The notes under the pieces: model-generated
Seen by the model: the letters and a program-made list of their open reading frames with translations, nothing else
What the model was told of the DNA's origin: nothing
The model's database searches: none
Source of the DNA: Escherichia phage vB_EcoM_DalCa
Reading direction: 5' to 3' (one strand)
DNA length: 64,000 bases
Sequence record: NC_054908.1
Shown: piece by piece, positions 2,651-7,927 of the stretch
Numbering within the stretch: position 1 is the first letter of the stretch
Layout of the letters: each line of letters opens with the position of its first letter
Translations under genes and position numbers: made by a program

Positions 2651-2676
2651 AAGGGACCTTTCGGTCCCTTTTTATT
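2651..2676. terminator. bidirectional hairpin terminator between gene 24 and rnlB (AAGGGACC-TTTC-GGTCCCTT)
   Basis: 8-bp inverted repeat with 4-nt loop, T-runs on both strands; lies between convergent genes. Confidence 0.65.
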
Positions 2677-2831
2677 TAACTTACCAATTCAATCCAAGCC
2701 GGACGAAGTACATCTTGTACCATTTTAACTAATTCCTTTTTAATCAAAGAAGGATTATCTGCTTGAGTTAGAGTAATACCTTCACGAGAAGTTTCTTCCA
2801 AAATATCTTGAACAGTTAGTCCCATCACCTT

Positions 2832-3680
2832 TCAAAAATCCTTCGGACCAATTTCACCAATTTTAGAAATAACGTTATTTACTCGGTTCAGTGTAACGTA
2901 GCAAGCTAAAATTCCCACCAATTTGTTATCAGCTTCTGATAGTTCAACTTTAGCTTTAATAGGCTTATCAGACTTTTTCTTTTCACTAAATTTGGAATTC
3001 TTGCATTTGATGGCTACACGATTTCCATTATGAAGCCAAGAAGGACAACAAGGTTTCAATACATATCCTTCAGCGGTAAATACTTCGCCTTTGGCTTCAG
3101 CTTTCCAAACACATTTGTTAGCGTCAACTAATCCTGCATGGTCTACTGTAAAATTATAATCTTGGACGACAGAATCTAAATCATTTGGCAATTTAATAAG
3201 CTCTTCAAATTTACCGCGACCTAAAAGTGGAGCCATTTTAAATTTAAATGTATTACAAAATGATTCCATCATATAATCATCGACATAAGTCACATCACCA
3301 CTTTCTGTAGTGACAATAATGTCAAATACATAAAAATCTTTATCGCCATAATCGACATTCTTCTGAATGCCAGGTCCAGCGAATTCGCCAAAGACTTGAT
3401 AAGATACAACCGCTGAGGTTTCCATAATATCTTGTACTGCTTTAATAGAATCTTCGTAATTCTTTAGAATAATTTCATACCCAAAGAAATCTTCAGCAGG
3501 AAGAATTGGTCCAGTACGTTTAGCGCAAGTTACTTTATCACGCTCAATAATCAATGAGAAATTTGTGCCGTGAATCTTTTCACGAGCTACCCACTCCCCA
3601 CCAGTCAATCCCAAGCTATAAAGTTTTTCAATAAATTTAGAGTTGTAATGATTTTCAAGACTGCTATACTTTTTAAACAT
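2832..3680 (-). CDS. rnlB: RNA ligase 2 (Rnl2), terminated by in-frame TGA after 282 codons; frame continues intact for 50 more codons to 2682
   Basis: N-terminus with KIHGTN nucleotidyltransferase motif I; recognised as T4 Rnl2 (334 aa); 282 + stop + 50 = 333 codons span the full-length position. Confidence 0.85.
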
Positions 3681-3689
3681 AATTAATCC

Positions 3690-3968
3690 TCAAAATGTAA
3701 TTTCTAACCAATCACCATCACGCTGATCACTATTGACTTTAAAGCTGAATCCTTCTTTTCTCAGCCAATCACCAATTTCTTCAGTAATCAATTTATCACG
3801 AGCAATACAATAATAACTAAAATGTGTTTTACCTTGTTCAGCTGCTTTATTAGCAAGTTCCGAAAAATCTTTAATAAAACATTCTAGTTTAAACTGTTTA
3901 CTTTTAAGTGCTTTTTCTCGCAATTGATTAGCAAAAGATTCATTTTCATAAAGATCATACTGTTCCAT
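3690..3968 (-). CDS. hypothetical protein (T4 24.2 position)
   Basis: 92-aa ORF, translationally coupled to flanking ORFs. Confidence 0.7.
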   Translation of the reverse strand: MEQYDLYENESFANQLREKALKSKQFKLECFIKDFSELANKAAEQGKTHFSYYCIARDKLITEEIGDWLRKEGFSFKVNSDQRDGDWLEITF

Positions 3969-4170
3969 TTTTCACCTTTTTATTGATATGTCTTTTTCTA
4001 TAGACGACTTTTTCTCGAGTTTCAAATTTATTCTTAGCAGTCATAGCTCGAGCCCATAATACAGCCACTTCTTTTGCCTGTAAGTTTAATTCACGAGCAA
4101 TTTCAATGAATGACTTTCCAGACTCATGAAGCGTAAACACCACAACCTCAGTTCTCATAATTAATCTCAT
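3955..4170 (-). CDS. small hypothetical protein with helix-turn-helix-like segment (T4 24.3 position)
   Basis: 71-aa ORF; segment GKSFIEIARELNLQAKEV resembles an HTH. Confidence 0.6.
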   Translation of the reverse strand: MRLIMRTEVVVFTLHESGKSFIEIARELNLQAKEVAVLWARAMTAKNKFETREKVVYRKRHINKKVKNGTV

Positions 4171-4259
4171 GTTATCGAGTTGGTGCCATTATATACATCA
4201 TTTTCTGATTGTGTTTTGCGTGCTTTCAAAATGAAGAAAGGGGCCGAAGCCCCTTATGA

Positions 4260-5675
4260 TTATGGATAGGTATAGATGATACCAGTTTCTAAAGCAGTTT
4301 TATGAATGATGTATCCATTACGCGATTCTTGGACATCAACTTCTGGATAGTCTTTAATCATCTTCTGAAGAGTGTAACGATGCAGGTAGTATTTACTATC
4401 TGGGTCGTCAGTTTTCCAATCTTTACCTTCTTCGGTCATTTTTTGGATTTCATCCATAACCCACCAACCGCACCAGATATAAGCTGAAGTACGATGTGGA
4501 AGAGGATGAACATAAGGTAGTTCACCTTCTGGTTCAATTGGAGTCCGTTCAGCAATAACAACTTCAGCTGTTGAACTAATTGTCTTTGAAGTGTAATTAT
4601 CTTTAGTTAATACTGCTTCAACTTTAATTGTATGAGTACCCGCTGAGGAGGTATCAATACTATAAGTATTAGTAGAATTACTTTCTGCTACGTTGTCTTT
4701 CTTCCAAGAGTACACAATATTAGTATCACCAGGAGCACCAGTAACAGATGCTGTTAAAGTTGCAGTTCCACCAACAGTAGTATTAACTGATGGCGGAGAT
4801 AAAGAAATGGTGGCACTATTAAATGTCGCATTATTAGTTACTACTGTTGCTTCTGCTGAAATTTCTTTTGTAACATAATTTGTTGCAGAAACAGATGCGG
4901 TGCATTTAAGAGTTTTACTTCCGACTTCGGTCGGAGTGAATTTATACGTAGCAGAAGTTGCATCCGGAATATTACTGTCATCCATTGACCATTGGAATGT
5001 TATAGTAGCACCTGAAGGTGCACTAGAGACATTTGCAGTTAAAGTAATAGGAACACCAAAGACTGTAGTCGGAGACTCGGGTGTAATTTTTAGCGTCGAA
5101 GAATTAGCCTTTTTATTTACAGTCAAAGAAACCGCTGATGATTCTACTGTTTTATCAACGTAATCAGTTGCAGTCACTGTGACAGAGCAAGTTATAGACT
5201 TAGTTCCTTCAGTTGTTGGTGTATATTCAAAGGTTGATTGCTTTTGACCGTCAACATCGACCCCGTCAACTTTCCATGTATAATCAATAGCAGCACCAAT
5301 AGGTTGATTGCTTACATTAGCAGTGAATGTTGTTGCTGTTCCAATTTCTACTGCCGCAGGAGAAGCCGGAGTAACAGTGATAGTGGAATTATTTTCTTTC
5401 TTATTAACAGTGATAGTTGTTGATGCTTCAGCTATTTCCGGATCTCCTGCGGAAAGTGTATTAGTTGCAACCACTTTAATTTTTTTTGTTCCTGCTGGAG
5501 AAGCAAGAGTATAATCCATTGTAGCAGCCGTAGAGCCCTGTGTTATATCATCTACAGTCCAGACGTATGTAATAGTACCGTCTGGGGTTTCACCTGCAGG
5601 TGTAGCAGTGAATGTTTGTGAACCTCCAATAACCCCTGTAGGAGTTAGAGGAGATAACGTGACAGTGAATGCCAT
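4260..5675 (-). CDS. hoc: Hoc, highly immunogenic outer capsid protein, with four tandem Ig-like repeats plus conserved C-terminal capsid-binding domain
   Basis: 471-aa ORF; four ~90-aa Thr/Ser-rich repeats; C-terminal ~90 aa (PEGELPYVHPLPHR...IIYTYP) recognised as Hoc capsid-binding domain. Confidence 0.9.
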   Translation of the reverse strand: MAFTVTLSPLTPTGVIGGSQTFTATPAGETPDGTITYVWTVDDITQGSTAATMDYTLASPAGTKKIKVVATNTLSAGDPEIAEASTTITVNKKENNSTITVTPASPAAVEIGTATTFTANVSNQPIGAAIDYTWKVDGVDVDGQKQSTFEYTPTTEGTKSITCSVTVTATDYVDKTVESSAVSLTVNKKANSSTLKITPESPTTVFGVPITLTANVSSAPSGATITFQWSMDDSNIPDATSATYKFTPTEVGSKTLKCTASVSATNYVTKEISAEATVVTNNATFNSATISLSPPSVNTTVGGTATLTASVTGAPGDTNIVYSWKKDNVAESNSTNTYSIDTSSAGTHTIKVEAVLTKDNYTSKTISSTAEVVIAERTPIEPEGELPYVHPLPHRTSAYIWCGWWVMDEIQKMTEEGKDWKTDDPDSKYYLHRYTLQKMIKDYPEVDVQESRNGYIIHKTALETGIIYTYP

Positions 5676-5684
5676 AAGTTATCC

Positions 5685-6365
5685 TTATTTTAATGTTATG
5701 AAAGAAGAATTACGAGTTTCGCGAATTAGAACTGATCCATCGCGATTAATATAATAAATTAAGCTAAATAATGTTTGGTGTGCTGACGCATGTTCAAAAC
5801 TAGTTGGGTGAGATTTCCAATCCGGAGTTTCAGCAATCCATTGATAAATCCACCAAGGAACAGTGCAGAATCCTGGATTTTTTCCAATCAGTTGAAGATT
5901 CGGACTAAAGTTTTCCGGAAGAGTAAATACAGACGGCTTTTCAGATTCAATAATCTCAGCTACAGCTTGTTCAAACTTTTCTTCAACAAACGGAGTGTCT
6001 TCAATCAAAACTGAGGTATTTTCAGGAATTTTATCCGTTTCTACTACTTCAATTTTAATGTCAGATTTAACCGGAGAATCAATCAAAAGTGCTGCTTCTG
6101 GATTGACTTCTTCATCGTCATATTTTAATCCCTCTGCGGCATCAGCAGCATCAATTAAGTCTTTAATAGATAACCCATCAGTCTCCGGCATAGGTTCACT
6201 AGCGAGCTTCTGGAGGGCTTCTTCAATATCAACAACGATATTATCAAAAGATTTATTCTTTTTGACCTTTATACCAAACTGTTCAGCATATTCAGCTAAT
6301 TTAGCTTTAGCTTCTTTGTTATCATCAAGAGCCTTCAGCTCTGCAATATAATCTTTATCTATCAT
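5685..6365 (-). CDS. inh: Inh, inhibitor of prohead protease gp21
   Basis: 226-aa ORF matching T4 Inh length and gene order. Confidence 0.8.
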   Translation of the reverse strand: MIDKDYIAELKALDDNKEAKAKLAEYAEQFGIKVKKNKSFDNIVVDIEEALQKLASEPMPETDGLSIKDLIDAADAAEGLKYDDEEVNPEAALLIDSPVKSDIKIEVVETDKIPENTSVLIEDTPFVEEKFEQAVAEIIESEKPSVFTLPENFSPNLQLIGKNPGFCTVPWWIYQWIAETPDWKSHPTSFEHASAHQTLFSLIYYINRDGSVLIRETRNSSFITLK

Positions 6366-6415
6366 AATATTTCCTCAGTATAAATATAGATATATTTATT
6401 ACATGGTATTTAGAC

Positions 6416-7927
6416 ATGACTGACATTAAAGTACATTTTTATGATTTTAGTCACGTGAGAATTGATTGTGAAGAAAGTACATTTCATGAACTCCGTGATT
6501 TCTTTAGCTTTGAAGCTGATGGGTATCGTTTTAATCCGAAGTACAGATATGGCCACTGGGATGGACGAATCCGTCTGTTAGATTATAATCGTCTTCTTCC
6601 ATTCGGCTTAGTCGGGCAAATTAAAAAGTTCTGCGATAACTTTGGCTATAAAGCCTGGATTGACCCACAGATTAACGAAAAAGAAGAATTATCAAGAAAA
6701 GATTTTGATGAATGGCTTTCTAAATTAGAAATCTATTCAGGAAATAAAAGAATTGAACCACATTGGTATCAAAAAGATGCAGTGTTCGAAGGATTAGTTA
6801 ATCGTCGTAGAATTCTTAATCTTCCAACATCCGCAGGTAAATCTTTAATTCAAGCTCTGCTTGCTCGGTATTATTTGGAAAATTATGAAGGCAAAATTCT
6901 TATTATTGTTCCAACAACTGCTCTGACAACTCAGATGGCTGATGACTTTGTTGACTATCGTTTATTCAGTCATGCAATGATAAAGAAAATCGGTGGTGGA
7001 GCATCAAAAGATGATAAATATAAAAATGATGCACCAGTCGTTGTTGGTACATGGCAAACTGTAGTAAAACAACCGAAAGAATGGTTCTCACAGTTTGGAA
7101 TGATGATGAATGATGAATGCCATCTTGCTACAGGAAAAAGTATTTCATCTATCATATCAGGTTTAAATAACTGCATGTTCAAATTTGGTCTATCTGGTTC
7201 ATTACGTGATGGCAAAGCCAATATCATGCAGTATGTTGGAATGTTTGGTGAAATATTTAAGCCAGTAACGACTTCTAAGTTAATGGAAGATGGACAAGTA
7301 ACTGAGCTAAAAATTAATAGTATTTTTCTTCGCTATCCCGATGAGTTCACTACTAAATTAAAGGGAAAAACTTATCAAGAAGAAATAAAAATTATTACGG
7401 GGCTTAGTAAAAGAAATAAATGGATCGCTAAATTGGCTATTAAGCTTGCACAAAAAGATGAAAACGCTTTTGTCATGTTTAAACATGTATCACATGGTAA
7501 AGCTATTTTCGATTTAATTAAAAATGAATACGATAAAGTTTATTACGTATCAGGGGAAGTTGATACCGAAACCCGCAACGTAATGAAAACCTTAGCTGAA
7601 AATGGTAAAGGAATAATTATAGTAGCTAGTTATGGTGTATTTTCTACTGGTATTTCAGTTAAAAATCTGCATCACGTTGTTTTAGCGCACGGTGTTAAAT
7701 CAAAAATCATTGTATTACAAACAATCGGTCGTGTATTACGTAAGCATGGTTCTAAAACAATCGCAACAGTCTGGGACCTCATAGATGACTGTGGTGTCAA
7801 GCCAAAATCTGCTAATACTAAAAAGAAATATGTTCACTTGAACTATCTTTTAAAACACGGCATTGATCGTATTCAGCGCTACGCAGATGAAAAATTTAAT
7901 TACGTAATGAAAACAGTTAATTTATAA
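6416..7927 (+). CDS. uvsW: UvsW DNA/RNA helicase (SF2)
   Basis: 503-aa ORF; Walker A-like LPTSAGKS and DExH-like NDECH motifs; recognised as T4 UvsW. Confidence 0.93.
   Translation: MTDIKVHFYDFSHVRIDCEESTFHELRDFFSFEADGYRFNPKYRYGHWDGRIRLLDYNRLLPFGLVGQIKKFCDNFGYKAWIDPQINEKEELSRKDFDEWLSKLEIYSGNKRIEPHWYQKDAVFEGLVNRRRILNLPTSAGKSLIQALLARYYLENYEGKILIIVPTTALTTQMADDFVDYRLFSHAMIKKIGGGASKDDKYKNDAPVVVGTWQTVVKQPKEWFSQFGMMMNDECHLATGKSISSIISGLNNCMFKFGLSGSLRDGKANIMQYVGMFGEIFKPVTTSKLMEDGQVTELKINSIFLRYPDEFTTKLKGKTYQEEIKIITGLSKRNKWIAKLAIKLAQKDENAFVMFKHVSHGKAIFDLIKNEYDKVYYVSGEVDTETRNVMKTLAENGKGIIIVASYGVFSTGISVKNLHHVVLAHGVKSKIIVLQTIGRVLRKHGSKTIATVWDLIDDCGVKPKSANTKKKYVHLNYLLKHGIDRIQRYADEKFNYVMKTVNL

Follow-up and report, generated by a model that had tools for sequence, protein, structure and literature searches.

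In bacteriophage T4, each gp23* hexamer carries one Hoc monomer, attached centrally through its C-terminal domain, and the protein forms a fibre of four domains with a length of 180 Å (PMC10385173). The Hoc fibre is described as promoting dispersal in a pH-dependent manner and as adhering weakly to glycans of bacteria and mucosa, and an acidic pI of about 4–5 is regarded as a Hoc trait (PMC10385173). Binding of mucin and fucose takes place through the Hoc Ig domains (PMC11150434; PMC11853027). In the Hoc of phage phiPNJ-6, residues E29 and G33 of domain 1 form a MUC2/fucose pocket (PMC11150434), and D246 of T4 Hoc is a site of mucus-adaptation mutation cited in PMC11853027. The Ig string is itself variable: depending on the Hoc, one, two, three or ten Ig-like domains have been described (PMC10385173; PMC11853027).

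We analyzed the hoc gene of Escherichia phage vB_EcoM_DalCa in a stretch of 64,000 nucleotides, referred to as the window. Several related proteins provide a frame for comparison. The window Hoc is 100% identical to those of Escherichia phages Paracelsus, vB_Eco_F26 and HEMP5 and of Yersinia phage PYps35T, with zero difference across the group that includes Paracelsus (Bas36, QXV83046); the identical protein is annotated as Hoc in Paracelsus, vB_Eco_F26 and PYps35T, and the HEMP5 record is unannotated. Next comes Hoc of the Mosigvirus RB69 (AAP76093, 471 aa; 96.4% identity), which equals the window Hoc in length and likewise has four Ig-like domains followed by a capsid-binding domain. Unlike in RB69, RB69-type sequence in the window is confined to the Ig array and the 3' end of inh, the coding region of the capsid-binding domain and every flanking gene being of T4/RB27 type. 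T4 Hoc (NP_049793, 376 aa; PDB 5VF3 chain Z and 8T1X, among others) shares gene position, capsid-binding domain and acidic pI but has three Ig-like domains, the window Hoc carrying one more (approximately residues 191–288) between T4 domains 2 and 3. The RB27-type Tequatrovirus Hocs of 472 aa and 568–570 aa (e.g. AIT74544, P0016, P0005, P0009) share both anchor and locus with the window Hoc and carry four or five Ig domains, at an overall identity of 58–60%. The domains added in these Hocs are recent copies of the second domain (80–93% identity to T4-type d2), in contrast to the third domain of the window Hoc, which belongs to an old lineage (38–47%). Finally, the N-terminal part of RB49 Hoc (PDB 3SHS) shares the fold class, its Ig-like domains likewise following one another in a line (Foldseek E = 1.4e-9 over 332 columns), yet it has three Ig domains, is 14% identical to the window Hoc in the structural alignment and was not found in a PDB sequence search with the window Hoc at E < 0.01. 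Among the best 120 homolog clusters, 78 were of 376 aa, 30 of 471–472 aa and 9 of 567–570 aa. Overall, the four-domain RB69-type Hoc is already deposited and annotated, and it is ordinary for the family.

The hoc gene and its surroundings

An earlier note, made from the sequence alone, had called a 471-aa Hoc at this locus, and database matches and synteny agree with it. The protein matched PHROG 1149 ('Hoc-like head decoration', E = 1e-135) and T4 Hoc (cryo-EM entries 5VF3/8T1X; phmmer, E = 6e-141). The gene lies between inh and 24.3/24.2/rnlB, near genes 23/24 and uvsW, and the order rnlB-24.2-24.3-hoc-inh-uvsW is the same in T4, RB69, RB27 and Paracelsus. The product is acidic, with a computed pI of 4.72 in the window and 4.74 in T4. 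Judged by sequence, positions 4260–5675 (Table 1) are hoc of a T4-family (Tequatrovirus) phage, and we found no evidence contradicting the identification as Hoc.

Table 1. Coordinates of the hoc gene, the domains it encodes and associated features in the window.
Feature	Position	Strand	Basis
hoc coding sequence	4260..5675	minus	471 codons, ATG start, TAA stop at 4260-4262 (open reading frame list)
Ig-like d1, residues 1-92	5400..5675	minus	repeat statistics, clade, pLDDT 89-96
Ig-like d2, residues 93-189	5109..5399	minus	repeats, T4 alignment, tree, pLDDT 90-96
Ig-like d3, residues 190-284 (extra domain)	4824..5108	minus	gap in T4 alignment, tree, pLDDT 86-95
Ig-like d4, residues 285-376	4548..4823	minus	T4 alignment, clade of last Ig domains, pLDDT 83-91
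Linker and C-terminal capsid-binding domain, T4-type, residues 377-471	4263..4547	minus	T4 alignment
RB69-type (Mosigvirus-like) DNA tract	4536..5772		identity per 100 nt and informative sites
Shine-Dalgarno-like AAGGA	5682..5686	minus	sequence reading; 6 nt upstream of hoc ATG
Terminator-like hairpin AAGGGGC-TTCG-GCCCCTT, then T-rich run	4228..4255	minus	terminator scan and sequence

Upstream of hoc, the AAGGA motif overlaps the inh stop codon (5685–5687), and we infer from its sequence that it serves as a Shine-Dalgarno element. Downstream, a hairpin that begins 5 nt past the hoc stop codon resembles, by consensus match only, an intrinsic terminator or an RNA-stabilising element. No canonical T4 late promoter TATAAATA was found on the minus strand in 5676–6420, upstream of hoc and inh; the closest copy of TATAAATA is at 6379–6386 on the plus strand, facing uvsW, and its window-wide count was not above chance. 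The number of sigma-70-like matches around hoc was at or below shuffle expectation, and they were disregarded. Antisense open reading frames on the plus strand over hoc (61–87 aa) were without support and were taken as chance.

Some differences were also recorded in genes near hoc. The rnlB gene (RNA ligase 2; 2676–3680, minus strand) contains an in-frame TGA at 2832–2834. Codon 283 is GGA (Gly283) in Paracelsus and RB27, and Gly stands at the aligned position in RB69. The rnlB open reading frame of the window stops after 282 aa and about 50 further codons stay in the same frame. The TGA may be a true nonsense mutation; otherwise it reflects an error in sequencing. The spacer between inh and uvsW is just 50 nt (6366–6415); the segE homing-endonuclease gene of T4 is absent from it, as it is between inh and uvsW in RB27 and Paracelsus. 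The 24.3 homolog (3955–4170, minus strand) encodes 71 aa and is 216 nt long as in Paracelsus, while the T4 and RB27 genes measure 171 and 204 nt, respectively, and the bin at 4000–4099 in the 24.3 region is 98% identical to RB27 and 66% to T4.

Four Ig-like repeats and a capsid-binding domain

The earlier note described four diverged repeats of about 90 aa ahead of the C-terminal domain, here numbered d1 to d4 from the N-terminus. YxW-type motifs (aromatic-x-Trp) are found at Hoc residues 37, 132, 227 and 322, giving an exact period of 95 aa, and GxKxIK-type motifs (G-x-K/H-x-I/L-K/T) at residues 62, 157, 252 and 346. The motif T-[IL]-x-[VIL]-[TS]-P-x-[ST]-P, which had been proposed for the start of each repeat, is exact in d2 (98) and d3 (194) alone, whereas d1 (TVTLSPLTP) and d4 (TISLSPPSV) fit it loosely; as the proposal read "roughly", its wording was fair. 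The repeats were tested domain by domain, comparing Smith-Waterman scores with those of 500 shuffles each. All six pairs among d1–d4 gave z = 9.1–25.5 at 34–40% identity, and 0 of 500 shuffles reached the observed score, which upholds the description of four repeats. The C-terminal 95 aa gave z values of 0.1–1.4 in three of four comparisons with the repeats, i.e. it is unrelated to them, and a weak value for d3 (z = 2.7, 19% identity) was treated as not meaningful. Self-comparison of the whole protein by blastp returned the diagonal alone. The repeats have also diverged at the DNA level, again as the note had it: Tandem Repeats Finder reported zero rows for hoc, the best off-diagonal blastn match in the gene was 43 nt at 74%, and ungapped in-register identity between 285-nt units was 39–49%, compared with 26% in shifted controls.

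Scanned as a whole against Pfam, Hoc passed the cut-offs of Ig_3 (34.9, cut-off 30), PKD (30.3, cut-off 23.5) and I-set (29.2, cut-off 23.7), with Ig_3 and PKD each covering at most three stretches. None of the four repeats reached a Pfam gathering score when scanned alone (0/4): d1 had zero matches, d2 matched PKD at 22.6 bits (gathering score 23.5), d3 had sub-threshold matches to Big_3_5, PKD_4 and Ig_2 (best 19.6 bits) and d4 sub-threshold matches to Ig_3 (25.9 bits, cut-off 30) and I-set (21.8 bits). The Pfam check that had been suggested earlier therefore succeeded for the protein as a whole, but four domains could not be counted by Pfam alone and, because the per-domain matches are sub-threshold, the number four rests on the repeat statistics together with the structure model. 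That model was obtained with AlphaFold2 from an alignment of 31 sequences, and its pLDDT, with a mean of 82.7, was read per block of ten residues. Over residues 1–370 the blocks ranged from 83 to 96 and one beta-strand pattern occurred four times, so that the structure prediction, likewise suggested beforehand, delivered four confident beta-sandwich domains. The linker block at 371–380 had a pLDDT of 74, and confidence was low in the C-terminal domain (26–59). A Foldseek search of the PDB placed Dscam1 Ig1-4, Sidekick Ig1-4 and ICAM-5 D1-D4 at the top (E about 1e-13, 410–440 columns), and in BFVD phage Hocs ranked best, the first being a 568-aa form. Repeats, predicted beta-sandwiches and the four-Ig matches of Foldseek agree on four Ig-like domains, as had been claimed, and the window Hoc is accordingly modelled as a tandem array of four Ig-like beta-sandwiches that ends in a capsid-binding domain of about 95 aa, i.e. 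the RB69-type five-domain form.

The capsid-binding domain at the C-terminus is as conserved as the note had supposed. Residues 289–471 align with T4 Hoc residues 194–376 (phmmer, E = 8e-85 for that stretch), residues 407–471 match PHROG 21694 (E = 1e-41), and the domain is homologous to T4 Hoc residues of about 281–376. In the last 91 residues, 89 are identical to T4 (2 differences), 8 of 273 nt differ in the DNA, and the domain is nearly invariant among the 31 homologs. Between RB69 and T4, its coding region shows 15 differences in 273 nt, with 2 in the 91 encoded residues, and the region 4263–4535 forms an island of DNA conservation across genera, the adjoining genes being 43–88% identical. 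A search with the capsid-binding domain alone returned 138 clusters (50% identity) in which it is nearly always C-terminal; these proteins range from 70 to 1473 aa and carry from about 0 to 15 N-terminal modules, most commonly two or three.

Position and age of the extra domain

T4 Hoc aligned with the window Hoc in two blocks (phmmer), residues 1–190 with T4 residues 1–190 and residues 289–471 with T4 residues 194–376. Because the alignment skips residues of about 191–288, the extra domain is d3, between T4 domains 2 and 3, and the T4 comparison called for in the note thus pointed to one added domain. The length excess, 471 − 376 = 95 aa, equals one repeat unit, so the window Hoc departs from the T4 type of exactly three Ig-like domains in 376 aa, a composition that the note had given correctly according to the units, the alignment and the literature (PMC10385173). 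Homologs were then split into 95-aa units with the YxW motif as anchor. By this division d1, d2 and d4 are orthologs of T4 Hoc domains 1 (60% identity), 2 (56%) and 3 (45%), respectively. A T4 ortholog of d3 is absent: its best matches outside the RB69 type are T4-type domain 2 at 42–47%, with 47% marking the nearest relative outside RB69-type arrays among 258 Hoc-family proteins, and d2 and d3 of the window Hoc are 38–40% identical to each other. A neighbour-joining tree of 31 domains (98-column alignment, bootstrapped) contained first, middle and last position-specific clades with 100% bootstrap each. The window d2 fell inside the middle clade and grouped with T4 d2 without d3 (100% bootstrap), and d3 was sister to the entire middle, or d2, clade (70% bootstrap). 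As d3 lies outside the pairing of the window d2 with its T4 counterpart, it split off before RB69-type and T4-type d2 diverged. From its sequence, d3 is placed as an ancient, deep-branching paralog of the d2 lineage, with 70% bootstrap for the sister position.

Other accounts of the additional 95 residues were weighed against this placement. The note itself had named three Ig domains with a longer linker as the case that would overturn its claim, and the Pfam maximum of three stretches for Ig_3 and PKD, along with the missing Pfam match of d1 alone, would fit such an arrangement, whether the additional stretch were linker or a disordered insert. It is nonetheless refuted by repeat statistics, AlphaFold2 and Foldseek, and we consider it close to impossible: the four repeats keep register at an exact 95-aa period with z of at least 9 in every pair, residues 190–284 are modelled with the full strand pattern of a beta-sandwich at pLDDT 86–95, the alignment to four-Ig chains spans 410–440 columns, and the surplus over T4 amounts to one repeat unit. 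A second account takes the fourth domain for a young tandem copy of domain 2, of the kind seen in RB27-type Hocs. Tandem duplication of d2 does operate within the family, since the extra domains of RB27-type 472-aa and 568-aa Hocs are 80–93% identical to T4-type d2, and the d2 lineage is also the closest to d3. For the window hoc, an identity of only 38–40% between d2 and d3, the absence of a DNA repeat, an in-register DNA identity of 49% and the fully supported union of the window d2 with T4 d2, from which d3 is left out, render this origin very improbable; the domain tree and Tandem Repeats Finder refute it, and the note was right to deny a recent duplication. A third account, in which d3 came into the gene from a distant Hoc or from some other gene with Ig domains and was not duplicated within hoc, is unlikely but less readily dismissed in view of the 47% ceiling for relatives outside RB69-type arrays and the attachment to the d2 clade at 70% bootstrap. 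Set against import, d3 keeps to the exact 95-aa register, has its Cys where d2 has it and preserves the linker motif NKK...T-L-x-I-T-P-x-S-P, and in every comparison it was matched best by d2-type domains of Hocs. Descent of d3 from an early split of the d2 lineage within hoc is the reading we prefer.

A mosaic hoc locus and its possible consequences

The DNA around hoc is of more than one type. Informative sites were defined as positions separating RB69 from RB27 and T4, and they change type between 4533 and 4536 and again between 5772 and 5781. The RB69-type tract thus delimited runs from about hoc codon 380 back to codon 1, across the hoc-inh junction and through the final 30 or so codons of inh. 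Identity per 100 nt was 92–99% to RB69 and 48–77% to RB27/T4 over approximately 4540–5700. Up to 4535 (rnlB, 24.2, 24.3 and the part of hoc encoding the capsid-binding domain) and from about 5780 onward (most of inh, and uvsW), it was 95–100% to RB27/T4 and 43–88% to RB69. One junction, at hoc codon 380 or so, coincides with the boundary of Ig domain 4 and the capsid-binding domain, and the second lies about 30 codons ahead of the inh end. The nearest genomes were Pinarejo (99.8%), a15, HEMP5 and PYps35T (99.6% each) and Paracelsus (99.1%), the last of which is classified as a Tequatrovirus. Taken at face value, the 96.4% identity to RB69 Hoc would suit an RB69-like Mosigvirus in which hoc was inherited vertically and no cassette was exchanged. 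A Mosigvirus segment would be expected to have RB69-type flanks as well, but the flanks are 95–100% T4/RB27 and only 43–88% RB69, the informative sites switch sharply at both ends, and the nearest complete genomes, such as Paracelsus, are of Tequatrovirus. The flank comparison and the informative sites refute the assignment of the window to an RB69-like Mosigvirus, and vertical inheritance has hardly any probability left. In its sequence, the Ig array looks like an RB69-type cassette exchanged into a T4/RB27-type Tequatrovirus backbone, and the junction at the boundary of d4 and the capsid-binding domain indicates that the exposed Ig array was swapped and the resident capsid anchor kept. To the earlier description, the present analysis adds two points: that d3, an ancient paralog within the d2 lineage, is the extra domain, and that a Tequatrovirus backbone carries an Ig array of RB69 type as a cassette.

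By homology with T4 Hoc, the protein would be a non-essential head decoration fibre. From the near-identity of its capsid-binding domain to that of T4 we infer hexamer-centre binding in this phage: each gp23* hexamer would hold a single Hoc monomer, anchored centrally by its C-terminal domain, with the acidic Ig string extending away from the capsid as a flexible fibre. If the 180 Å of T4 Hoc are divided among its four domains (about 45 Å each), five domains would by our own division reach some 225 Å. By analogy with T4 and phiPNJ-6, such a fibre would give weak, reversible adhesion to glycans, mucus and cell surfaces and would aid dispersal of particles. On reading of the sequence, E29 and G33 are kept in the window Hoc, and its D341, which aligns with D246 of T4, is invariant in the alignment of 31 homologs. 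That a longer Hoc fibre alters adhesion, as the earlier note had ventured, is speculation. Taken together, we consider it highly probable that the window encodes an RB69-type four-Ig Hoc with an ancient d3 and an Ig array present as a recombined cassette, docking on the capsid and a role in adhesion being predicted from T4 and other Hocs. The finding carries little weight as a discovery, given that the Hoc protein was already deposited and annotated and that variation in Ig-domain number has been published. It bears on phage display, vaccine scaffolds and work on mucus adherence in that Tequatrovirus isolates carry Hoc alleles of three, four or five domains.

Further Hoc proteins, mosaic at domain boundaries between T4-type and RB69-type alleles, hint at how these alleles may arise, although any single-contig metagenomic proteins among them may be assembly chimeras. 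P0002 (567 aa) consists of T4-type d1-d2 followed by RB69-type d2-d3-d4 and looks like an out-of-register recombinant, P0011 (376 aa) joins RB69-type d1-d2 to a T4-type last domain, and the third domain of P0013 (472 aa) is 78% identical to the window d2. These sequences suggest that recombination between alleles, at times out of register, gave rise to the series of Hocs with three, four and five domains. The conservation of capsid-binding-domain DNA across genera would make this region a natural site of homologous exchange. We tentatively propose, at slightly less than even chances, that the hoc Ig array is a cassette traded among T-even genera through two conserved anchors and through recombination at linkers, with changes in reach and specificity as a result. 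The anchors would be the coding region of the capsid-binding domain and the inh 3' end, both unusually conserved in DNA, and homologous recombination there would swap the domains for surface adhesion. Out-of-register recombination at the linkers between domains would in turn alter domain number, yielding alleles of three, four and five domains and mosaics such as P0002 and P0011. With its RB69-type array on a T4-type anchor, the Paracelsus/Bas36 group offers a natural domain-swap experiment on the relation of fibre length and the extra domain to adhesion. If the proposed exchange holds true, a Tequatrovirus bearing the RB69-type array with its ancient d3 would differ in how far its Hoc reaches, or in which ligands it recognizes, on mucus or cell surfaces.
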